The notes beneath the pieces are model-generated. The model saw only the letters and a list, made by a program, of their open reading frames with translations, ran no database searches and was not told the DNA's origin. This document shows, piece by piece, positions 1,677 through 17,947 of a stretch of 64,000 bases of DNA. The translations under genes and the position numbers were made by a program. Numbering within the stretch: position 1 is the first letter of the stretch; every line of letters starts with the position of its first letter. This DNA comes from Candidatus Eiseniibacteriota bacterium. GTDB lineage: Bacteria; Eisenbacteria; RBG-16-71-46; CAIMUX01; VGJL01. The stretch lies in NCBI GenBank assembly GCA_041946735.1, contig JBHGAY010000014.1:32001-96000 (forward strand). The letters run 5' to 3'.

Positions 1677-3980
1677 TCAGGGCCGGATCGAGTTCGCCGG
1701 CGCCTCGCGGCCGGCCAGCACCGCGTCGAGGTGCTCCAGATACCCCTCGATCTTCGGATCGGCGGGATGGGAGGCGGCGACGGCCCGGGCGGCGAGCTCG
1801 CGCGCCGCCCGGATCTCCTCCTGCGCAGCGGCCCTCTCCAGCGGAGGCGAGGCCTCCGCGACGCGCGCTTCGCGAGCCGCCGCGAGGGCGTGGAGCACCG
1901 GCGCCTCTCCGCTGGACCGTGACGCGGCGGCGTCGAGGAGCCGGATCGCGACGTCCCAGCGGCGGAGGTAGGCTGCGGCGATCCCGGCGTAGTAGAGCGT
2001 CTGAACGTCCGTCTGACGCTTGCCCGCCTGCTGGAAGGCGGTGAGCGCCTCTTCGTACAGCCCGCTCTCGAGCGCGGCATAGCCGTAGCTGCTCCAGATT
2101 CCCGGATCGTCGGGGGTCATCGGAGCGGCGCGGCGCAGCAGCGGCAGCGCGCCGGCGTAGTCCTTCCGGTCGAACGCGAGGCGCGCCTTCATCTGCATCG
2201 CGAGCCAGCTGTCCGGATCGATGTCGAGCGCCGCGTCGTACTCGCGCTCCGCGTCGTCCCGGCGGCCCATCAGGTACAGCAGCCCGCCGAGCAGGACGCG
2301 GGTGCGCGCGTTGCGCGGATTGATCCGGACCGTCTCTTCGTAGAGCGGCAACGCCTTCTGGTAGTCGCCGCGATCCCGGTAGTACTTGCCCAGCTCCTCG
2401 GCGGCGTACGCGCGCGGCGCCGGGGCAAAGTCCGCTCGCATCTCGTCGAAGCGCGCCAGCGACGCGTCGCGCGACGCGTTGACGGCGAACCACGGCCATG
2501 CGAGCAGCAGCGCGACCGAAACCGCAGCGACGCGAAGGCTGGGCAGCGCGATCCGCGGCGCGCGCGCCGGCCCCACCGGCGCCCGCCCGGCCGGCGCCGG
2601 CTGCGTCGCCACCTCCTCCTCCCACAGGCGGGCCGCGATCCAGGCGAGGCCCACCGCGTGCGGGACGAGGAGGTCCCAGTCGCGCGCCATCCCGAGCTTG
2701 CGGTCGAGCAGCGCGAACGCGAGCAGGAACGCCACCGTGTGGATCCACAGGAACGGGAGGTCCGCGCGGGCCTCCCGAGGAGTGGCCCTCCGGCCGCGCG
2801 CCATCCGCGGAAGAATCCCGAGGACGATCAGGCTCCCCGTCACCGGCGTGACGAGCAGCAGCCAGTTCGCGAGGTCCTTCACGTGAAGGAGCGAGAGGAA
2901 TCCGTGAGGTCCGGTGAGCGGCACGAGGAGCTTTTGCTGGTTGCTCGACTTCAGGAACTCGGTCTCGAACCAGGCGCCGTCATAGCCGGCCGCGAGGTGC
3001 GCGGCGACCGCCACCAGCGGAACGGCGACCGCCGGGACGATCACCTGCGCAAGCCACTTGCCCCGCGGCGCGCGCTCCGGGCCCGGACGCAGCGCAAGCC
3101 ACAGGAGCGCCGGCGCCGCGACCAACGCGATCGTGTGGAAGAAGAGCGCCAGCCCGAAGAACAGCCCCGGCAGCCACGCGGGCGCCCGCCCCCGCTGCGC
3201 CATCGCCCCGCTCCAGAGGAAGCCGAGCAGAGCCACCGTCACGAAGCCGTAGGACTCGACGTAGCCGCAGAAGAGAAGCGTCGAGGGCGCGGCGAGCCAG
3301 ATCGCGAACAGGACGGTCCGCGTGGCGGCCGGCATCGGGCTGCCGCGCAGCAGACGCAGGGCGAGGAAGATCGCGAGGAGCCCCGCGAGCCAGCTTCCGA
3401 TCGCGTAGAGCCGGAAGGAGAGCGCCGGATCGTTCCCGTCCGCGACCGCCCCATAGACGAGCCGGTGGAGCAGGTAGTCCATCGCGTCGTGACCCCGGAA
3501 CTCCGCTCCCCTCGCAACCAGTTCGCCGACGAGGACTCCATCCCCGAGCAGATGCGTCGCCGCCCGTAGCAGGACGAACAGACCGAGACCGGCAAGCGGC
3601 GCCACGACGAGCGGGAGAGGCGAGCGGCCGAAGAGCCAGGACGAGAGGCTGCGCCTCTCTCCGAACAGGACGGCGTCGAGCCGGGAGGCGACCGGCGCGA
3701 GGAGCAGGGTCCCCCAGGCCAGGATCGAGATCGCCCACGCCCATGCCGGCAGATAGCCGGTCAGGTGAACTCCCCAGGCGAGGGTGGGAGAGAGGAATCG
3801 GCCGAGAATCGGTAGCAGCCCCAAGCCGAGCAGGACGAAGACGGCGGTTTGCGCTCGGCGCTGCGCGAGCGCCTCCGCTTCGCCGCGCAGCCCGCTGGCG
3901 TCGTCGGGCGGGCGGTCTGCCGTCGCGGGCGCGCCGCCCCTCCCCTGTCGTCCCGCCATCGCCGTCCTCCCCCGGTCCAT
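1677..3980 (-). CDS. Multi-TM (GT-C-like) membrane protein with C-terminal TPR repeats
   Basis: About 12 hydrophobic segments with LLGDG, YVESY and RDWDL loops, followed by TPR repeats (e.g. AEELGKYYRDRGDYQKALPLYEETVRINP). The start may be 3959. Confidence 0.7.
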   Translation of the reverse strand: MDRGRTAMAGRQGRGGAPATADRPPDDASGLRGEAEALAQRRAQTAVFVLLGLGLLPILGRFLSPTLAWGVHLTGYLPAWAWAISILAWGTLLLAPVASRLDAVLFGERRSLSSWLFGRSPLPLVVAPLAGLGLFVLLRAATHLLGDGVLVGELVARGAEFRGHDAMDYLLHRLVYGAVADGNDPALSFRLYAIGSWLAGLLAIFLALRLLRGSPMPAATRTVLFAIWLAAPSTLLFCGYVESYGFVTVALLGFLWSGAMAQRGRAPAWLPGLFFGLALFFHTIALVAAPALLWLALRPGPERAPRGKWLAQVIVPAVAVPLVAVAAHLAAGYDGAWFETEFLKSSNQQKLLVPLTGPHGFLSLLHVKDLANWLLLVTPVTGSLIVLGILPRMARGRRATPREARADLPFLWIHTVAFLLAFALLDRKLGMARDWDLLVPHAVGLAWIAARLWEEEVATQPAPAGRAPVGPARAPRIALPSLRVAAVSVALLLAWPWFAVNASRDASLARFDEMRADFAPAPRAYAAEELGKYYRDRGDYQKALPLYEETVRINPRNARTRVLLGGLLYLMGRRDDAEREYDAALDIDPDSWLAMQMKARLAFDRKDYAGALPLLRRAAPMTPDDPGIWSSYGYAALESGLYEEALTAFQQAGKRQTDVQTLYYAGIAAAYLRRWDVAIRLLDAAASRSSGEAPVLHALAAAREARVAEASPPLERAAAQEEIRAARELAARAVAASHPADPKIEGYLEHLDAVLAGREAPANSIRP

Positions 3981-4079
3981 CCCTCAGCGCCCGTCCGCAC
4001 CCCGGGCAGCCGCCTCCGCCTCGCTCCCCGCCCTCTGCAGCAGCTCGAGACGAGCCGGCCGGCTCAGATCATCGGCGCT

Positions 4080-4679
4080 TCAGACCGATCCGGGGAAGAT
4101 CCACTTCGCGCGCTCGACGAGCGCTCGCTCGAACCACCGGATGTACTGGCGCTCCCCCTCCTCGCGGCGCCGGATCGCCTCCCGCGCCGTCCGGTAGAAG
4201 GCCCAGGGGCTCTCGGGGCGCAATCCGCCCCGCGGCGTGAGATACGCCTCCGGAATTCGCAGATAGACCGGGGCCGCGTCGACCAGCACCTGATCGCGAG
4301 CCAGCGAGAAGAGGTCGCAGCTTCGCTCCCCCATCGGGACCAGGCCGCGCGCCTGCAGCAGATGCACGAGTTCGTGGGAGATCGTCTGGTAGCAGAGCCC
4401 CCGAGGATTCAGCCAGATCCTCGGCTCCTCCAGGCTCGCGTAGCCGTCGGCCCCGCGGGCGATGCCGATGCGCAGTCCTGTCTCGTGCAGCTCGGGGAAG
4501 AAACGCAGCGCGAAATCGACCATTCGGACGATGCGCCGCCTCGACCGATGGGCCTGCAAGGGGCGCGAGAGGGTATGCGCATTCGTCGACGACCGCGGAT
4601 GGTCCCAGACGAGCGCGAGATCGAGCTGGCTCGGCGGAGGAGGCCCGATCCTCTGTGCTGCGTTACGCTTGGCTCGCAT
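4080..4679 (-). CDS. Hypothetical protein with HExxH motif (putative zinc metallopeptidase-like)
   Basis: ATG at 4679 (MRAKRN…). Contains TISHELVH followed by GERSCD. Coding-like composition. Confidence 0.55.
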   Translation of the reverse strand: MRAKRNAAQRIGPPPPSQLDLALVWDHPRSSTNAHTLSRPLQAHRSRRRIVRMVDFALRFFPELHETGLRIGIARGADGYASLEEPRIWLNPRGLCYQTISHELVHLLQARGLVPMGERSCDLFSLARDQVLVDAAPVYLRIPEAYLTPRGGLRPESPWAFYRTAREAIRRREEGERQYIRWFERALVERAKWIFPGSV

Positions 4680-4878
4680 GCGGACAGTGTACCCGATGGC
4701 TGGCTCCCCTCGCGCGGGGGTCGGCTCCCCGCCCTCCGTGACCGTTCCTTCACCGGATCTGCCTCGGCAAGCCAAAGCCGGACCAGGAACCAGGCTGTGC
4801 GTCCCGGAATCATAAGAAGACTGGTAGGTTGGCACCGGATGGCATAAGTTTTCCGAGGAGTTGGGAAGGGGGGTGGGG

Positions 4879-6774: not shown

Positions 6775-6990
6775 CGCAGCTCGTCGTTCCGGCGACGGCC
6801 GGATGGTCAGGACGGTCAGGACGGCCGGCGCGGTCGGCCCGCGTGAAGGATCGAGCGGAATCTGCGTCTCGCCTGCAGCTTCTTCTTGCGCCGGCGCGAT
6901 CCGGGATCGAGGATCGCGCCGGTCCGCTTCGGGACCGGCATTCCAATGGGTGGAATCGACGGCCTGGCAAGGCCTGGGAGGTGAGGAGCG

Positions 6991-7086
6991 ATGGTTTGCG
7001 GAAAGAAGACGGCGACGGCGGCAGCGAAGAAGGCGACGAAGACCACGAAGAAGGCGGCTCCGAAGAAGGCCGCGAAGAAGAAGTAG
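6991..7086 (+). CDS. Histone H1-like Lys/Ala-rich microprotein (31 aa)
   Basis: MVCGKKTATAAAKKATKTTKKAAPKKAAKKK* follows a strong RBS (GGAGGTGA-GGAG, 6977-6988). All Lys codons are AAG. A GC hairpin follows at 7100-7126. It is below the ORF-track cutoff. Confidence 0.7.
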   Translation: MVCGKKTATAAAKKATKTTKKAAPKKAAKKK

Positions 7087-7210
7087 CCGCGCCGGGAGCG
7101 GGGCGCGGGTCCGCTGGCCGCGCCCCGGCCCTTCGCCCCATGCGTCTCCCCTCCTGCCTTGCCCCCCCGAACCCGCCTGGGGTATCCTCCGTTCGTCCCG
7201 AGAAGAAACG

Positions 7211-8248
7211 ATGATCAGCACCCACCCACCGATCCTGCGGATTTCCCGGATCCATCAGCTCGTGCAGGCCCGGCGCTATCCGAACGTGACGTACCTGGCG
7301 CGGCAGCTCGAGGTGTCCCGGCGTACGGTGCAGCGCGACATCGAGTTCCTGCGGGACCAGCTGAAGGCCCCGATCGCCTTCAATCCGATCCAGAACGGCT
7401 TCGAGTACACAGAGGAAGGGTTCTCCCTTCCGGAGGTCCAGATGACGGAGGGAGAGGTGCTGGCCCTGATGGTCGCCGACAAGGCTCTGTCGGCGTATCA
7501 GGGAACAGCCTGCGAGGACCTGCTGCGGCAGCTTCTCGGCAAGGCGACGCTGGCCCTCGGGGAGAAGCTCACCATTTCTCCGGAAGAGGTCTCCCAGGCC
7601 TACTCCTTCCAGCACAGCTCGGCCCCCTCCCGCGTCGACGCGAAGGTCTTCGCGACGCTCGAGGCCGCGATCCGCGATCGCGAGACGGTGGAGATCGTCT
7701 ACTACACGCAGAGCCGCAGGCAGACATCCAAGCGCAGGATCGACCCCTATCATCTGGCCAACGTCGACGGGGATTGGTATCTCCTCGCGTTCTGCCACCT
7801 CCATCAGGAAGTCCGGACGTTCAAGCCGGCGCGCGTTCGCGCCGCCGAAAAGACCGGACTCTACTTCGTCCCCTCCCCCTTCGATCCGGCCGAGTTCCTG
7901 CGAACGAAGCTCCAGGCGATCGGCGGGGACAGGATCTTCGAGACGGTCGTCCGCTTCGAGCCGGCGCTCGCGGGTCACATCCTCGAACGGGACTGGGGCG
8001 AAGGGTATCGCGCACAGACGACGACCAACGGCGGCGTCGAGCTCTCGTTCCGCAGCGAAAACGCCGACGCGGTCATTCGCTGGTGCTTGAGCTGGGGTCC
8101 GGGAGCGGAAGTCGTCTCCCCCGCCTGGGTGCGACGGCGCGCCCGTGAGATCCTCCGCCGCATCGGCCGCGCTTACGAGAGCGCGGCGCGACCGGTCCGC
8201 TCGGCCGCCAGGAGGCGGCGCCCCCCGTCCCGCCCTCCATCCGCATAG
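7211..8248 (+). CDS. WYL-domain transcriptional regulator (wHTH-WYL-WCX, PafC/YafY-like)
   Basis: HTH (LARQLEVSRRTVQRDIEFLRD), WYL (RRIDPYHL…WYLLAFCH…RTFKPAR) and WCX (WCLSWGPGAEVVSP). Confidence 0.92.
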   Translation: MISTHPPILRISRIHQLVQARRYPNVTYLARQLEVSRRTVQRDIEFLRDQLKAPIAFNPIQNGFEYTEEGFSLPEVQMTEGEVLALMVADKALSAYQGTACEDLLRQLLGKATLALGEKLTISPEEVSQAYSFQHSSAPSRVDAKVFATLEAAIRDRETVEIVYYTQSRRQTSKRRIDPYHLANVDGDWYLLAFCHLHQEVRTFKPARVRAAEKTGLYFVPSPFDPAEFLRTKLQAIGGDRIFETVVRFEPALAGHILERDWGEGYRAQTTTNGGVELSFRSENADAVIRWCLSWGPGAEVVSPAWVRRRAREILRRIGRAYESAARPVRSAARRRRPPSRPPSA

Positions 8249-10834: not shown

Positions 10835-12667
10835 ATGCGCATAGCTAACGTGTTCCTGATCCTGTTCGTGTTCGGGTTCTGCCTTGGCAGCCCCGCTTGG
10901 GCGAAGGACACCGAGAAGATGGAGGAGCCGGAGTGGCACTACGATCTCTCCGGGATGGTTCGTAGCGTAGTGCCCGAGGTCGAGCCGAACGACGAATGCG
11001 GCGCCGGATCCCAGGCGATCACGTGCGGAGACGAGGTCAATCCTGCTCAGATCCTCCCCGCCGGAGAATTCGACTGGTTCGCCTTCCAGGCGAACGCGGG
11101 AGACGGCATCACCATCGGACTGGATGCCTCGGATCTCTGCGATCCGGACGTCAACGATACCTACATCTATCTGTACCGGGACGATTGCACCACGATCCTG
11201 GCCCAGGACGACGACTCGGGGCCGGGCTACTACTCGCAGATCACGAATTTCTCCGCGCCCTACACGGGCACCTACTACGTCAAGGTCAGGGGATACAGCG
11301 CCAGCTATGAGGGCTGCTACAAGATGTTCACCACCTGCGCTCCGCTTCCGACCGGCGCCTGCTGCCTGGCCGGCGGCGTCTGCGAGGTGATGACGCAAGG
11401 CGCCTGCACCACGGCCGGCGGGACTTACCAGGGCAACGACACGGTCTGCGAGCCGAACCCCTGCCCGCAGCCGCCTCCGAATGACCTCTGCTCCGGCGCC
11501 ATCGAGCTGCCCCGTTGCCAGAACGGTCTGATCTCGGCGACGACGATCGCAGCGGCCAACGACTACAACCCGGGCGATCCGGGGCCGAGCTGCACCGGCT
11601 ACAACGAGAACGCGAAGGACGTCACCTACTACATGAACCTCCTTGCGGGGGACACGGTGCACCTGGTCTACACGACACCCGCCTACGACGGCGCGATCTA
11701 CATCGTCACGGACTGCGAAAACGAGAGCGCGACATGCGTGGTGGGCGAGGACGATCCCGAGCCGGAGACGATCGACTGGACCGCGACGGCCGACGGGACG
11801 TACTTCGTCATCGCGGACGGCTTCTCGACGAACGGCGGCGGGGACTTCACGCTCGAGTGGTCGATCACCTGCCCGCCCCCCGCGCAGGCCTGCTGCTTCG
11901 TGGACGGCAGCTGCCAGATGCTGACCGCCGAGGTTTGCCTCGAGATGAGCGGGACTCCGCAGGGCGAAGGCTCTGTCTGCGAGCCGAACCCCTGTGAGAT
12001 TCCGCCGACCGCCTGCTGCTTCCCCGACGGCACCTGCCAGATGCTGCCGAGGGAGGAGTGCCTGAACCAGGGCGGCCAGCCTCTCAACGACGTCTGCGAT
12101 CCCAACCCCTGCGACCAGCCTCCGATGGCGTGCTGCTTCCCGGATGGCTCATGCCAGTTCACCCTCGAGGCGTATTGCATCGAGGCCGGTGGCGCGCCTC
12201 AGGGCTACGGCACCAACTGCGAGCCGAACCTCTGCGAGCAGCCCCCGGTCGCCTGCTGCTTCCCGGACGGCACCTGCGAGTTCGTGACCGCCGACATCTG
12301 CGTCCAGATGGGTGGAGCGCCCGGAGCGTACGGCACCGACTGCGAGCCCAACGACTGCCCGCAGCCGCCGGTCGCCTGCTGCTTCGCGGACGGCTCCTGC
12401 GAGTTCGTCCTTGCGGACGTCTGCACCCAGATGGGCGGGACGCCCGGACCGTACGGCACCGACTGCGAGCCCAACGACTGCCCGCAGCCGCCGGCGGAAG
12501 GGGCGTGCTGCTTCACGGGTCAGCTGTGCGAGGTCATGAGCTCCGAGGACTGCATTGCCGAGGGCGGCACCTACCAGGGTGACGACGTCTCGTGCGACCC
12601 GAATCCGTGCCCGCCGACGGCGACGAAGGACGCCACCTGGGGCCGGATCAAGGCCAACTACCGCTAG
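10835..12667 (+). CDS. Secreted two-beta-sandwich protein with 7 Cys-rich ACC repeats and C-terminal TWGRIKANYR tail
   Basis: RBS AGGAGG; signal peptide; PPC-like domain, 1 Cys module, second domain (NDYNP…CTGYN…KDV…YDG…), then 6 Cys modules. Confidence 0.88.
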   Translation: MRIANVFLILFVFGFCLGSPAWAKDTEKMEEPEWHYDLSGMVRSVVPEVEPNDECGAGSQAITCGDEVNPAQILPAGEFDWFAFQANAGDGITIGLDASDLCDPDVNDTYIYLYRDDCTTILAQDDDSGPGYYSQITNFSAPYTGTYYVKVRGYSASYEGCYKMFTTCAPLPTGACCLAGGVCEVMTQGACTTAGGTYQGNDTVCEPNPCPQPPPNDLCSGAIELPRCQNGLISATTIAAANDYNPGDPGPSCTGYNENAKDVTYYMNLLAGDTVHLVYTTPAYDGAIYIVTDCENESATCVVGEDDPEPETIDWTATADGTYFVIADGFSTNGGGDFTLEWSITCPPPAQACCFVDGSCQMLTAEVCLEMSGTPQGEGSVCEPNPCEIPPTACCFPDGTCQMLPREECLNQGGQPLNDVCDPNPCDQPPMACCFPDGSCQFTLEAYCIEAGGAPQGYGTNCEPNLCEQPPVACCFPDGTCEFVTADICVQMGGAPGAYGTDCEPNDCPQPPVACCFADGSCEFVLADVCTQMGGTPGPYGTDCEPNDCPQPPAEGACCFTGQLCEVMSSEDCIAEGGTYQGDDVSCDPNPCPPTATKDATWGRIKANYR

Positions 12668-12728: not shown

Positions 12729-13065
12729 CCCATGATGCGTAGGGCGCTCACGCCAGGTTCGATCACTGACCACGCTTGTCCATTGCAGCGAGAGATGACG
12801 CACCGAACAGCGATGTCGGAGAGTGAGGGCGGAGACCCATCGGCGGCGGGGACGGGGGACGAGGAGCGTCTACCTAAGATCCTGCCCACGAACGGCTTGC
12901 CGCCGGAAGATTCTTTCGCGTCTGAAGTGGTCAAAGACTGATCGTTCTTTACAGAAGGGCCGATTCAGAGTAAAATACGATTTGCCTGTGAACCATGTCC
13001 CTGCTTGGGATCTGGTCGCGCAGGAGACTTCTGCTAGCAGAAACAGCACTTGCACGGAGGTTCAC

Positions 13066-14136
13066 ATGCGTCTTGTTCTAGCTTTGGTCCTTACGACGAT
13101 GCTCTGTAGCGGCCTCGCCTTCGCTGCCCCCGGCAACGAGGATCCGAAGCCCTGGTCGTACGACACCTCTTGGGCTCGTTCCGAGTATCCCGAGCAGGAG
13201 CCGAACGACACGTGTCCGGGTCAGGCTACGGCGTGCGGTGACGTCGTCACCCCGGCGTACCTCGACGCCGGCAACGAGGATTGGTACTCGTTCACGGTGA
13301 ACGCGGGTGACGCCATCACGGTCGGGACCCAAGAGGTCAACCCTGGCGACTACGCCGACACCTACATCGAGCTCTACTTCGAGTGCGGTGGCACGATCCT
13401 CGCGGAGGATGACGACAGCGGCCCGAGCACCTACTCGCTCATTCAGGAGTGGATCGCTCCGCAGACCGGCACCTACAACCTGAAGGTTCGCGGGTTCAGC
13501 GCGAGCTCCTACGGCCCCTACGAGGTCTTCTTCCAGTGCGGCCAGGTCGTCCTCCCCGAGGGCGATCAGTGCGACACCGCGACGGAGATCACCTGTGGGA
13601 CGGGGACGCTCAATGGCGACCTGACGACCTACCACAACGACTACAACCCGTACGCGGACGGGTACAGCTGCACCGGGTACAACGCGAACGACAAGGACGT
13701 GGTCTTCATCCTCAACATGAACGAGGGCGACAGCATCGACCTCACCTACACGACGCCGAGCTATGACGGATCGATGTACATCATCACCGATTGCGCCGAC
13801 GCGGCTCACAGTTGCGTGATCGGCGAGGACGATCCGGAGCCCGAGCACATCGCTTGGACGGCCACGGCCACCGGCACCTACTACCTGATCCTCGACGGCT
13901 ACTCGGCTGGCGCTGGCGGACCCTGGACTCTCGACTACATCTTCGATTGCGTCACGCCGCCGACCGAGGGGGCTTGCTGCTTCCCCGACGGTAGCTGCGC
14001 CATGCTGCTCCCCGACGATTGCACCCTCAACGGTGGCGATCCTCAGGGCGAGGGCACGACGTGCGAGAGCGTCGAGTGCGAGATCGTGGCGACCCAGGAC
14101 GCGACCTGGGGCCAGATCAAGGCGACCTATCGCTAG
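13066..14136 (+). CDS. Secreted paralogue: two beta-sandwich domains, 1 Cys-rich ACC repeat, C-terminal TWGQIKATYR tail
   Basis: RBS GGAGG at 13056 then ATG 13066 (MRLVLALVL…). Clearly homologous to 10835..12667. Confidence 0.88.
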   Translation: MRLVLALVLTTMLCSGLAFAAPGNEDPKPWSYDTSWARSEYPEQEPNDTCPGQATACGDVVTPAYLDAGNEDWYSFTVNAGDAITVGTQEVNPGDYADTYIELYFECGGTILAEDDDSGPSTYSLIQEWIAPQTGTYNLKVRGFSASSYGPYEVFFQCGQVVLPEGDQCDTATEITCGTGTLNGDLTTYHNDYNPYADGYSCTGYNANDKDVVFILNMNEGDSIDLTYTTPSYDGSMYIITDCADAAHSCVIGEDDPEPEHIAWTATATGTYYLILDGYSAGAGGPWTLDYIFDCVTPPTEGACCFPDGSCAMLLPDDCTLNGGDPQGEGTTCESVECEIVATQDATWGQIKATYR

Positions 14137-14159
14137 CATCGAAGCCGTAAGTCTCTGAG

Positions 14160-14191
14160 AAGAGGCCCCGCCCGCAAGGGCGGGGTCTTTT
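14160..14191 (+). terminator. Rho-independent terminator
   Basis: AAGAGGCCCCGCCC-GCAA-GGGCGGGGTCTTTT: GNRA-capped GC stem ending in T run. Confidence 0.85.
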
Positions 14192-14242
14192 CGTTCGGCC
14201 TGGAACCCGCAGAAACGAGCCGAAGGGAGCCATCTTCGGAGG

Positions 14243-14729
14243 ATCGAGCAGGAGAACCCCTAAGGGGAGAGTCTCCACCGGGTGCTTCGCGATGAAGAAC
14301 CCCAAGCGGGAGACTCTCGGTTCGGATGTTCACCCTCGCGAACTGGCCTCGCCAGACTCTCGGGCCGAGGCTTCACGTCGGTGAAGGCCTCGCAGGAGAC
14401 TCTCGAGTCGGATGTTCACACCCGGCAACTCGAGACCCGAGATTCTCGGAACGTGGCTTCACGATCGGGAAGGGGCCGGCCGAGAATCTCCGTGCCCCAG
14501 TTCGCATCGGGAGAGATAGGGTCCGAGACTCTCCGCCTACCCCTTCACCGAGTGCAACTCCCCCACGGGACTTCTCGATTCGCAGGTTCACAGCCTCGAA
14601 CCTCCCGGGTCGAAGTCTCTGATCGGCTCTTCACGCCAGTGAACCGGAGGGGCCAGAACCGGGACTCGGTGCTTCACGCCTGTGAACGGGTCTGCCTGGA
14701 CGCTGGGCTCGGGTCTTCGCCTTGGTGAA
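14243..14729. repeat. Non-coding 43-bp-period dual-motif array (about 11.5 units)
   Basis: TTC recurs at 14286, 14329, 14372, 14415, 14458, 14501, 14544, 14587, 14630, 14673 and 14716, exactly 43 apart, usually as TTC-N8-GAA. GAGAnTCTC-like motifs start at 14267, 14310, 14353, 14396, 14439, 14482 and 14525. Confidence 0.92.
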
Positions 14730-14876
14730 GCTGCCCGCTCGGGCTCCGACGGGCGGTTCAGCGCAATCGAATGCGGCGGAGGCTCGGCGGAGACTCAATT
14801 GAGCGACGGCGACCGCCCTCCCTGGAGGACGATCGCCGTCGACGATCCGGCCGGTCGACTCAGGAACGGTTCGCCA

Positions 14877-17666
14877 TCACCGGACGACGACCAGCCGTCG
14901 GACGCGCCGCTCGCCATCCGCCTGCAGCCGGCTCCAGTAGACCCCCGCCGGGACGTCGTGACCCAGGCCGTCCTTGCCGTCCCAGCGGATCGCGTGCGAT
15001 CCGGCGGCGAGCGGCTGGTCGAGGAGCTCGCGGACCAGGCGCCCGGAGACGTCGACGATCGTCAGCTCCACCGATCCGGCGCGTGGCAGCGCGAACGAGA
15101 GCTGCATCGCGCCGGACGCGGGGTTCGGCCGCGCGGGCGAGAAGGTCAGGGTGCGCGGGAGCGCCTCCGCCTCTTCCGTCCCCGCCGGATCGATCGGCTC
15201 CTCGAAGAAGGTCTCGAGCACGTGCACCATGTTCTGGCGCAGGGAGGCGTGCTCCCAGCGATACGGCCGTCCGCTCAGGAAGACGAACTGCGCTCCGTCG
15301 GGACGGTACATCCCGCCGCCGGCCGGCTTGCGCCAGACGCCGATCCCGCGATCCGGGTTGATGTACTGCTGCGCCTGGTAGATCACGCGGCTGTCGGGCT
15401 GCGAGAGGGTGAGGTTGAAGAGCGAGCAGTAGTTCTGGGTGCCCAGTCGGACGATGTTGGTCAGTCCGGGATAGCTCGCGATGCAGTCGTAGATCGTGCT
15501 GCCGGATTCCCAGGTGATCCCGAGATACGCGCGCTCCTGCTCCGTCAGGTAGTCCTGGCCCATGCGGGTGAGCAGCAGGACGTTGCCGCCCGCCTCCAGG
15601 TAGGGAACGATCGGCGTCGATCTCCACGAGCCGAGGTCGCCGTTGTAGTTGCTGGCGACCCAGACGACGTTGCGGTAGCGGCCGAGAACGTCGGGCGGAA
15701 TCGCTCCGCTGCCGATCGGATCGGGCAGGGTCGAGGGATAGCCGCCGGCCGGCTCCGGGAAGAGGTCCCAGAAGTCGATCACGTAGTCGCCCGTGAACGC
15801 CCGATCCTGGTAGGCGCTCGCGATCTCGTCGCCGTAGGAAGTCCAGTCGACCGCGTTGACGAGGAGCACGCCGCGATCGAACGGCGGATCGTAGATCGGC
15901 TCCGTGACCGTCTTCAGGATCCAGTCGCCCTCGTCGATCCGAACCGATCGGGGCTCGTCCGTCACATGGAAGAGGTAGTCCTGCGTGGCCAGGCTGTTCT
16001 CCACGACGAAGGTCTGCTCCCCGTTTGCCATATGGATCGTCACGTCGACCGGCATCCGGAAGATCTGCCAGGTCTGGGTCTGGTCGATCGTGAGGGCGAC
16101 GTCCCAGCCGCCGCCGCCCGGCGTGAACGTGTAGGAGAGGGAGTACTCCGGGTAGTACTCCCCGTAGATCCACTCCTGGAAGAACCAGTCGAGATCCCGC
16201 CCGGAGACCTGCTCGCAGACGTCCCGGAATTTCTCGGTCGTGGCGACCGAGTAGCGGTACGTCTGGTAGTAGGCGCGCAGGGAGGCGAAGAAATCCTCCT
16301 CGCCAAGGACGTGCCGCAGCATGTGGAGGACCCAGGAGCCTTTGTTGTAGGAGAGGTTCGAATCGAAGATCCGGCCCCAGTCGTTCAGGTCGGGGACGTA
16401 GATCGATCCAGGCCCGAAGTACTTGTTGCCGTCGATGTCCTGGCGGTATCCGTCGGGACCGTAGGCCACTTCGGAGTACAGGGCTTCGCAATAGGTGGCG
16501 AAGCCCTCGTTGAGCCAGACGTGGTGGAAGTCCTCGCAGGTGATCATGTCGCCCCACCACTGATGCGCCAGCTCGTGCGCGACCACCCACTCGCCGAAGT
16601 AGCCGAGGCTGGTGCAGGTCTGGTGCTCCATCCCGCCGCCCCACGGGAACTCGGCGTGCCCGTACTTCTCTCCCTGGAACGGGTAGGCGCCGAAGATGCC
16701 GGAGTAGATCCCGATCATGTCCTTCACCTTCGCGTTGACGGCGGCGTTCTCCTGCACGTCGTCCGGGTACATGAAGAACTTGATCTCGAGGGAGTCGGAC
16801 GGGCTCGCGTGGTACCAGTCCGAGTAGACGGCGAAGGGGTGGACGGCGAGGGAGACCAGGTACGTGCTGATCGGGAACCCTTCATGCCAGCGCGCCACCG
16901 AGGTGATCCCGTTGTCGCTCTGCTCCCGAAGCTCGCCGTTGGAGGCGGTGATCAGCCCGGTCGGCGCCGTGACGCGCACGTTGACGGAGTCGGCCTTGTC
17001 GTCCGACCAGTCCTTGCTCGGCCACCAGGTCCGTCCGCCGAACGGCTCGCTCAGGGTCCAGATCATCGGCTGGCCGAGATGGGTATCCCAGCCCCAGGCG
17101 TCCCCTTGCGGATTGCCGTTGTAGAGCACCCGCACCTCGACCGTCTCGCCGGTCTGGTAGGCGCGGTCGAGCGTCACCGTCAGGACGTCCCCGATGTGGC
17201 TGAAGGTCGCGGCATGGCCGCCGGCCTGCGATCCCGTCACCGTCATGTTGGCGGCGAGATCGAGATCGAAGGTCGCCAGCGGGCCGGACAGCACCCGGGC
17301 GCGGGTCAGGACGTTGCCGGTCAGGACGTGGGCCACCGGGTCGAGGTTCAGGTCGAGATCGTAGAAGAGCGCGTCGTAGGCGAGCTGGTTGGGAGTCGTG
17401 CGGCCGCGCGCCAGCGAGGCGATACGTTCGCTCCTTTCGGCCATCGCGGCCTTGTGGAAGGCGAGGTACGGAGCCGTGTCGCGAGGGTCCATCATGCGGC
17501 CCACCCACCCGGCGGCCGTCGAGGGAAAGAGCACCGGCCCGCTTTCGTCCGCCCGGGCAGGAGCCGGAAGGAGGACGGACAGCAGGAGCGCCGGCAGGGC
17601 GAGCAGAGCGAGCGGGAAGAGAGCGAGCGGGAAGGACGGCGAGAGGGACCGCGGGGAGCGCCGCAT
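14877..17666 (-). CDS. M1 family aminopeptidase with C-terminal FlgD-Ig/T9SS-A-like domain
   Basis: RBS GGAGGA then ATG 17666; signal peptide; GGMEH, HELAHQWWG-x-NEGFATY and YNKGSWVLHMLR motifs; C-terminal PNP…DVSGRLVR…WDGKD…AGVY. Confidence 0.92.
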   Translation of the reverse strand: MRRSPRSLSPSFPLALFPLALLALPALLLSVLLPAPARADESGPVLFPSTAAGWVGRMMDPRDTAPYLAFHKAAMAERSERIASLARGRTTPNQLAYDALFYDLDLNLDPVAHVLTGNVLTRARVLSGPLATFDLDLAANMTVTGSQAGGHAATFSHIGDVLTVTLDRAYQTGETVEVRVLYNGNPQGDAWGWDTHLGQPMIWTLSEPFGGRTWWPSKDWSDDKADSVNVRVTAPTGLITASNGELREQSDNGITSVARWHEGFPISTYLVSLAVHPFAVYSDWYHASPSDSLEIKFFMYPDDVQENAAVNAKVKDMIGIYSGIFGAYPFQGEKYGHAEFPWGGGMEHQTCTSLGYFGEWVVAHELAHQWWGDMITCEDFHHVWLNEGFATYCEALYSEVAYGPDGYRQDIDGNKYFGPGSIYVPDLNDWGRIFDSNLSYNKGSWVLHMLRHVLGEEDFFASLRAYYQTYRYSVATTEKFRDVCEQVSGRDLDWFFQEWIYGEYYPEYSLSYTFTPGGGGWDVALTIDQTQTWQIFRMPVDVTIHMANGEQTFVVENSLATQDYLFHVTDEPRSVRIDEGDWILKTVTEPIYDPPFDRGVLLVNAVDWTSYGDEIASAYQDRAFTGDYVIDFWDLFPEPAGGYPSTLPDPIGSGAIPPDVLGRYRNVVWVASNYNGDLGSWRSTPIVPYLEAGGNVLLLTRMGQDYLTEQERAYLGITWESGSTIYDCIASYPGLTNIVRLGTQNYCSLFNLTLSQPDSRVIYQAQQYINPDRGIGVWRKPAGGGMYRPDGAQFVFLSGRPYRWEHASLRQNMVHVLETFFEEPIDPAGTEEAEALPRTLTFSPARPNPASGAMQLSFALPRAGSVELTIVDVSGRLVRELLDQPLAAGSHAIRWDGKDGLGHDVPAGVYWSRLQADGERRVRRLVVVR

Positions 17667-17947
17667 GGAAGATCCTCCAAGGTGTCGGACATCGCGGCCC
17701 GCCCGCGTCGGGGCGCGCGAGCCACGGCTGCTTGCGAAGGACCGCGGCGCAGGCGGAAGAGCCCGCTGCGACCGCGGCCGGGAGACGATACCGGATGATT
17801 GTACCATGGGGAGGGCGGCCCTCCGTGGGCGCGTGTGTGTGCGTGTCGGGCGGTTGTCGGGTGGAAATCGGGGGGGGCCGAGGTGCGGGCCGCGCAAAGC
17901 CGTCCCGAGGAGACCCCGGGACGGCTCGACGGCACGGCGGATAGAGG

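Follow-up and report, generated by a model that had tools for sequence, protein, structure and literature searches.

A 43-bp tandem array with two dyads per unit in a Candidatus Eiseniibacteriota genome, a possible phased docking site on double-stranded DNA

The centromere sopC of plasmid F is made of 12 direct repeats of 43 bp, and SopB binds a 16-bp inverted repeat in each of them (PMC3177203). A tandem array of similar geometry lies between two converging genes in a 64,000-nt window (C6:32001-96000) of a Candidatus Eiseniibacteriota genome, a binned draft assembly of 4.89 Mb in 72 contigs that is 94.8% complete. Positions below are those of this window unless a contig is named. Like sopC, the window array consists of head-to-tail direct repeats of exactly 43 bp, has about a dozen units, and carries an inverted repeat in each. 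It differs in that its units hold two different dyads, the sequences of which are unrelated to the SopB site, and in that the units have diverged strongly outside these motifs. No plasmid record matches the array and no sopAB or parAB operon lies beside it, the only ParB being encoded on another contig with its own canonical parS. In geometry the array is closest to sopC, but with neither adjacent partition genes nor an apparent plasmid context it is no member of the sopC family.

TIGR arrays are a second point of comparison. They combine two repeats of 8-12 nt in alternation with variable spacers of 9-12 nt, contain box C/D nucleotides and lie next to a Tas gene with a Nop domain (PMC12045711; TIGRFinder preprint); the unit is 36 nt long and there are usually 5-15 units (PMC12045711). 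The window array resembles them in the alternation of two short elements with segments of about 10 nt, in its 11 units, which fall within 5-15, and in having a terminator nearby. Its unit, however, is 43 nt rather than 36, and the element in the "loop" position has 14 nt, outside 8-12 nt. Its repeats lack conservation within the locus, the sister arrays described below show no variable segments, and no Tas/Nop gene is adjacent or present elsewhere in the genome, the neighbours encoding only PPC (pre-peptidase C-terminal), M1 peptidase and FlgD_ig domains. Compared with CRISPR arrays, the conserved elements are short (9 and 14 nt, against repeats of at least 23 nt) and the genome has no Cas1.

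REP/BIME elements of enterobacteria are short palindromic tandem units in non-coding gaps at gene 3' ends, often between converging genes, and architectural or mRNA stability roles have been proposed for them. The window array shares the palindromic tandem units, the non-coding setting and the position at gene 3' ends. It differs in that its family (A) is found at two or three loci rather than hundreds, in that its units are direct and follow a fixed 43-bp step instead of alternating as inverted REPs, and in lacking the conserved REP head motif; a search of the genome for a RAYT gene (Y1 transposase, PF01797) gave 0 matches. By descriptive class (intergenic tandem repeat, units of 10-100 bp) the array is a non-coding minisatellite. 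Like minisatellites and variable-number tandem repeats (VNTRs, for example of the MIRU type), it is an intergenic tandem repeat of tens of base pairs, lineage-specific and present at few loci, but its units are near-random except for 18 motif columns and contain no indel. No literature on tandem repeats in Eisenbacteria was found, and what was found on helical turns in relation to the unit length of minisatellites was limited to general work on VNTRs and typing.

Each unit consists, in order, of a 9-bp dyad GAGAnTCTC (dyad 1), a 10-nt segment, a 14-bp dyad TTCAC-N4-GTGAA (dyad 2) and a second 10-nt segment (Table 1). The dyad centres lie at columns 5 and 26.5 of the unit and are thus 21.5 bp apart, as a preliminary description of this locus, made from the sequence alone, had stated. 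The indel-free 43-bp period claimed there is borne out as well: self-match of the array is maximal at lag 43 (0.504, z 5.4), with further autocorrelation peaks at 86, 129 and 172, and the 43-step layout shows that no base is gained or lost in any of the 11 units. The bounds, given as 14243-14729, are corrected to 14267-14739. Tandem Repeats Finder (TRF), proposed alongside autocorrelation as a check on the period, recovers only the best-kept core of the array in the window, 14309-14419 (period 43) and 14309-14473 (period 86).

The register of the motifs is exact. TTC is in phase in 11/11 units and GAA follows 8 nt later in 8/11, in agreement with the first count, and TTCRC recurs at exact 43-bp steps in all 11 units. 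The TCTC half of dyad 1 is retained in 9/11 units, which are consecutive and at exact 43-bp steps, and exact GAGANTCTC occurs in 6/11. For dyad 2 the left half is retained in 11/11 units and the full TTCAC-N4-GTGAA is exact in 3/11. The outer units (from 14568) are the most eroded of the array. Both 10-nt segments had been called variable, which holds for the second, since it looks random, but not fully for the first, which keeps CG at columns 14-15 in 9/11 units. Two-unit (86-bp) blocks in the core resemble each other more than adjacent units do, which shows that whole units were still being duplicated, and the array was still growing, once they had diverged. The period is not a multiple of 3 and the 148-aa frame across the array matches no family, in keeping with the earlier view that this is not a protein repeat.

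Conservation in the array is concentrated in the motifs. Over the 11 units, pairwise identity is 0.739 in the 18 motif columns against 0.358 in the 24 other columns, for which the identity expected by chance from their composition is 0.31. The variance of column conservation is 5.5, compared with about 2.4 under uniform decay on a star tree, and 0 of 3000 simulations reach the observed value; with coalescent-tree simulations of the same mean identity, a fraction of 0.002-0.009 attains it. Such unevenness is not produced by uniform neutral decay, and the motif columns are conserved beyond it. The motif columns have 50% G+C and the decayed columns 74% in a genome of 68.4%, so that the motifs persist in spite of compositional drift. 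The absence of any indel is notable: indels arise at a ratio to substitutions of roughly 0.05-0.2, and in an array whose filler is near saturation free spacing should, by estimate rather than by calculation, have left many of them.

The units give little sign of RNA structure. A whole-unit hairpin of 19 pairs has 59.6% of its cells paired, against 62.4% in shuffles (alignment of 17 units, taken from the three family-A arrays together). Compensatory changes are in no excess in these units, and only the conserved dyad halves pair. The hairpin is therefore unsupported, which points to double-stranded DNA and away from RNA structure.

The retention of motifs and spacing next to randomised filler, the dyad symmetry and the lack of RNA covariation suggest, with a probability of about 0.4, that the array is a phased docking array on double-stranded DNA with sopC-like geometry, the putative binder being encoded elsewhere. 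Selection would keep just the two short dyad motifs and their exact spacing in an old, species-private 43-bp minisatellite. One or two dimeric DNA-binding proteins would find a dyad to bind at intervals of 21.5 bp, or about two turns of the helix, and all sites would lie on one face of it, so that a cooperative nucleoprotein array could form in the gap between the converging genes, comparable in geometry with the sopC centromere or with an iteron or architectural array. The complex might act in segregation-like clustering, as a barrier to transcription or supercoiling, or otherwise. If motifs and spacing are truly selected, the locus would be a clean natural chromosomal example of a sopC-like phased binding array without partition genes, and its pattern of divergence would mark which bases matter.

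The preliminary description called the array an orphan, which is right at this locus but not for the genome, where the family has two to three loci. Family A was sought over the genome by pattern scan, unit profile and BLAST, and the profile matches only contigs C6, C43 and C55. Both dyad motifs form the common core of all three arrays, and the consensus sequences of the C6 and C43 arrays match at 31/43 positions (z 8). Within the C43 and C55 arrays the 10-nt segments are nearly identical between units, which makes them ordinary repeat columns and not spacers. These two arrays are younger than the window array, which is the old copy of the family. In the decayed units on C43 the 43-bp step is kept between two TCTC copies, and GTGAA-type half-sites, judged by eye, are also at 43-bp steps. 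C55 and C43 possibly represent opposite sides of a single locus, in which case the family has two loci, and otherwise three; several arrays of this genome end at contig edges. Both arrays lie at the 3' end of secreted peptidase genes with a FlgD_ig-type sorting domain, of the C25 type on contig C55 and M36-like on C43. Shared flanks between loci of one family, which would be a sign of a larger mobile element, were not found.

The scan for copies that turned up C43 and C55 found none in relatives or in the collections searched. The two-dyad pattern, an exact-motif pattern that would overlook diverged arrays, has 0 matches in 40 relatives and in the 205 other genomes of the phylum (a set of 206 with its own, 121 of them at least 90% complete), and BLAST with the array gave no match in 34/34 other genomes of the order. 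The species-representative collection has the pattern at 51 loci, once each, and the unit profile finds no second unit 43 bp away; the extra profile matches at these loci either fall on the opposite strand of that site or are weak ones at a distance of more than 1 kb. There are 63 loci with a single match each in the metagenome collection and 0 in the viral collection, and whole-array BLAST against plasmid and phage records gave no match. The array sequence itself was found in contigs of four public metagenome runs, with no copy-number variant. Two of these runs are not candidate sources, and their contigs cover parts of the array with zero differences; the strains in the runs are near-identical and contigs hide rare variants, so that this agreement says little on stability.

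The docking reading has serious weaknesses, namely that no binder was found, that the array is confined to one species, that its sister arrays carry insertions and that its unit length is common to unrelated families, and the following observations weigh against it. Family A is absent from every other genome searched, with orthologous gaps filled by other genes, and a family private to one genome has no cross-species conservation to back a function. Orthologues of the M1 peptidase occur in 5/5 family relatives (56-63% identity). Two of these relatives also keep PPC genes nearby, and the gap there, without a 43-bp array, holds an OmpA-like gene in one and a three-gene amino-acid ABC-transporter operon in the other, contents so different that the gap is a spot that varies from genus to genus. 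Conservation of dyad 2 is uneven, its left half being kept in 52/55 cells and its right half in 41/55 (Fisher p 0.007), which is not expected of a symmetric dimer site.

The sister arrays also tolerate mobile-element insertions. In the C43 array, units lie on either side of a C-terminal fragment of a transposase of the Mutator family (IS256-type; C43:119-538, PF00872, profile positions 292-377 of 379), of which no full copy was seen in the assembly. On C55 the insertion point is immediately behind the right half of dyad 2, where the terminal sequence of about 58 bp of a multi-copy element (C55:10563-10620) follows. The same element end closes six contigs (C55, C6, C39, C48, C53 and C9), and the body of the element is not in the bin; its first bases presumably resemble IS3-family inverted repeats.

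The protein-binding platform offered as one of two readings in the preliminary description stands as the best supported, on motif-limited conservation, register, dyads and lack of covariation, but the search for a binder gave no candidate, and no DNA-binding gene adjoins any family-A array. ParB_N occurs only twice in the genome, in the chromosomal ParB on C56, which has a canonical parS beside it, and in a methylase fusion on C28. It is absent from the larger open reading frames (ORFs) of positions 4810-25566, from C43 and from C55; ParA was not searched for separately. Outside the arrays dyad 2 has two occurrences in the genome, which is the level of control patterns, and dyad 1 is not enriched; at this background level the dyads form no dispersed operator set and no regulon. 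The co-occurring partner gene that had been looked for did not emerge either, since in an all-against-all comparison of the 134 ORFs within 6 kb of eleven array loci the common neighbours were secreted-protein genes only, with no recurrent DNA-binding gene among them. Finally, a 42/43-bp unit is common to four unrelated families in the genome, which suggests a sequence-independent cause of the period.

Two other ideas on the dyads were rejected. One was a restriction site: GANTC, which lies within dyad 1, has an observed/expected ratio of 0.54, like several such 5-mers, and CAC-N4-GTG one of 1.11, so that there is no avoidance. The other was that dyad 2 represents two parS half-sites with 4 bp inserted, which involves only 5 bases per half-site and is not relied on; the canonical parS lies beside the chromosomal parB, and no extra centromere-type ParB was found. 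The fusion on C28 is a 506-aa protein (C28:14728-16248, minus strand) in which a ParB N-terminal domain is joined to an N6/N4 DNA methylase domain. Proteins built in this way mostly occur on mobile elements.

The main alternative to docking, somewhat less probable, is a functionless, neutral or selfish minisatellite. Slippage or unequal exchange would have expanded a 43-bp unit in a gap that is dispensable, a second locus would have been reached later, and the array would now be in decay. Its palindromes would then persist mechanistically, by favouring slippage or re-amplification, with nothing bound to them. The restriction of the family to one genome, the gap content that varies between genera, the sister arrays broken by a transposase fragment and an element end, and the lack of both partner gene and regulon are all consistent with it, as is the erosion of the edge units, which is typical of satellites. 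This genome is also unusually rich in tandem repeats. With identical settings TRF gives 1315 rows in its 4.9 Mb, or about 270 per Mb, whereas 800 kb of a family relative (G004:C6:1-800000) give 31 rows, or about 39 per Mb, none of them with a 42/43-bp period. However, the column heterogeneity is not produced by uniform decay, and the zero indels beside near-random non-motif columns would be left unexplained. In addition, the A/T-richer motifs survive in a 68% G+C genome, and there is no known neutral process that would protect 18 specific columns. If the array is merely a decaying minisatellite the finding is an ordinary one, its main value being the removal of a false TIGR-like lead.

The other repeats of the genome were surveyed with TRF, coding and non-coding loci being separated by a crude rule based on frame and GC3, by which some 42-bp cases may be coding. 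At least four further non-coding families (B-E) have units of 42 or 43 bp and no detectable sequence relation to family A, and the period is 42, 43 or 84 in 15 of the 22 loci of period at least 37 that the crude rule classed as non-coding. Family B has a 9-bp odd dyad and a longer even dyad with centres 21.5 bp apart, as placed by hand on the consensus. It goes unmatched in the order's 34 other genomes, and family D has two short chance-level matches only; by these searches both are private to this genome. In a manual tally from ORFs and domains, 10 of the 13 flanking genes identified turn their 3' end toward an array. A FlgD_ig-domain gene directly adjoins 6/11 array loci (A on C6, C43 and C55, B on C7, D on C11 and E on C5); the genome holds at least 150 such genes. 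All six neighbours encode large secreted proteins, and three are C25-type peptidases or homologues.

No described repeat family was found to explain a 42/43-bp unit shared among unrelated families of one genome. It is conceivable, though unlikely, that the genome carries a class of helical-phase-locked intergenic arrays that serve as private docking or topology elements. The class would comprise at least five unrelated families with 42-43-bp units equal to four helical turns, several with two dyads half a unit apart, lying mostly at gene 3' ends and often beside secreted-protein genes with a C-terminal sorting domain, and the window array would be its oldest member, in which the dyads and the spacing alone would have been visibly retained by selection. 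Such arrays would be a bacterial counterpart of length-constrained satellite DNA, without a described family.

The shared unit length also bears on an improbable alternative, in which the array is a sequence-independent architectural element. Its unit of about four turns would place phased A/T-containing patches in G+C-rich DNA, the motifs being secondary, and where converging genes end a general nucleoid protein or gyrase could have this DNA wrapped or bent around it, as proposed for BIME clusters. Besides the five or more unrelated non-coding families with this unit, the 3' ends pointing at the arrays and the odd and even dyads of family B would fit such an element. The shorter non-coding repeats of the genome, however, have many other periods (16, 17, 19, 20, 22), so that no general phase rule applies, and geometry by itself gives no reason for the retention of the same 18 columns throughout the three family-A arrays.

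An RNA-level element is distinctly improbable. The array would be a long 3' untranslated region of the M1 peptidase mRNA on the minus strand, or form an RNA of its own, and its repeated GUGAA and GAGA words would bind an RNA-binding protein as a sponge or stabilise the message. Minus-strand read-through from the peptidase gene would traverse the entire array before a weak terminator-like hairpin just past it (14220-14239), and the asymmetry of dyad 2 (p 0.007) means that the purine-rich halves are better kept on the minus strand. The array also has the same orientation toward a minus-strand secreted-peptidase gene in both family loci, about 137 bp from the stop codon as read from the coordinates. 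Against this, Rfam at E<=10 over 13800-15200 gave nothing near any family threshold, the sole CRISPR match sitting on the terminator and far under threshold, and a scan found 0 sigma-70-like promoter sites. Folding of the array improves weakly on that of shuffles (z -1.8 for the plus and -2.8 for the minus strand), a slight excess expected from the palindromes alone, and covariation is absent. Sponge RNAs have no known need for exact spacing.

The second reading of the preliminary description, a TIGR-like or other dual-spacer guide-RNA array with a partner encoded elsewhere, is almost certainly wrong and largely refuted, as its superficial match in layout (two short elements alternating with two 10-nt segments over 11 units, terminator adjacent) to TIGR arrays (PMC12045711) is accompanied by failure in each defining feature that could be tested. 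The absence of an adjacent Nop-domain Tas gene, noted at the outset, extends to the whole genome, with 0 matches to PF01798 at E<=1 where control genomes match, and 0 to Cas1 (PF01867). Scanned with box C/D patterns, the array has 0 box C words, and one CTGA and one TGA.GA per strand that are not in repeated phase. The supposed repeats are eroded within the locus, the same "spacers" recur in the sister arrays, and the first segment is partly conserved in the window array itself. The 22 ten-mers of the array have 30 other occurrences in the genome on average, against 50 (median 25) for shuffled ones, which is chance level, and no split-target match for them was found in the genome.

Table 1. 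Coordinates of the window array, related and unrelated arrays of the genome, flanking features and orthologous gaps (window positions unless a contig or relative is given)
Feature	Position	Strand	Basis or remark
43-bp tandem array, 11 units head-to-tail	14267..14739	.	43-step layout, autocorrelation, motif positions; TRF core
Dyad 1 (GAGAnTCTC), first copy	14267..14275	.	repeats each 43 bp up to 14611-14619
Dyad 2 (TTCRC-N4-GTGAA), first copy	14286..14299	.	repeats each 43 bp up to 14716-14729
86-bp higher-order duplication	14309..14473	.	TRF: period 86, 1.9 copies, 77% matches
Sister array, family A	C43:1-168 (contig start)		3.8 copies, 89% matches
Decayed sister units, about 3.5, family A	C43:573-730		
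Sister array, about 4 units, family A	C55:10395-10566		
Family B arrays, 43 bp	C19:1-312; C32:1-111; C7:129935-130073; C21:71457-71551		
Family C array, 43 bp	C46:4367-4552		
Family D arrays, 42 bp	C11:45057-45463; C14:94359-94504; C4:136026-136246		
Family E array, 42 bp	C5:115720-116202		
Upstream gene for a secreted-type PPC-domain protein	12823..14136	+	PF04151, E 7e-9
Intrinsic terminator of the upstream gene, G+C-rich hairpin then T run	14159..14192	+	inverted repeat; terminator-like site 14171-14184 plus tail
Weak terminator-like hairpin beyond the array	14220..14239	-	consensus scan only; putative
Imperfect inverted repeat between the array and the M1 peptidase stop codon	14804..14841	.	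reverse-strand self-match, 38 nt, 84% (C6:46804-46841)
Convergent M1-family peptidase gene with FlgD_ig / type-IX-like C-terminal sorting domain	14877..17897	-	PF01433, E 2e-28; PF13860, E 1e-8
Orthologous gap, relative G005	3382-4698 (locus coordinates)		
Orthologous gap, relative G004	2386-4544 (locus coordinates)		

The terminator and the convergent M1 peptidase gene flank the array as first described. Among the larger ORFs scanned in positions 4810-25566 there is no recognised partition, transposition or guide-RNA function. In this binned assembly contig C6 is 130.7 kb long, and carries peptidase, transporter and regulator genes, and the genes neighbouring the array look chromosomal. A WYL-domain regulator (HTH_11, WYL and WCX domains; 6803-8248, plus strand) is encoded 6 kb upstream, and no link between it and the array was found. 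A 123-bp coding repeat of 3.3 copies (12094-12494; C6:44094-44494) forms part of the first PPC-domain gene (10835-12667). By translation of the DNA its product is a Cys-rich module, and a module of this kind ends the next gene, just before the terminator.

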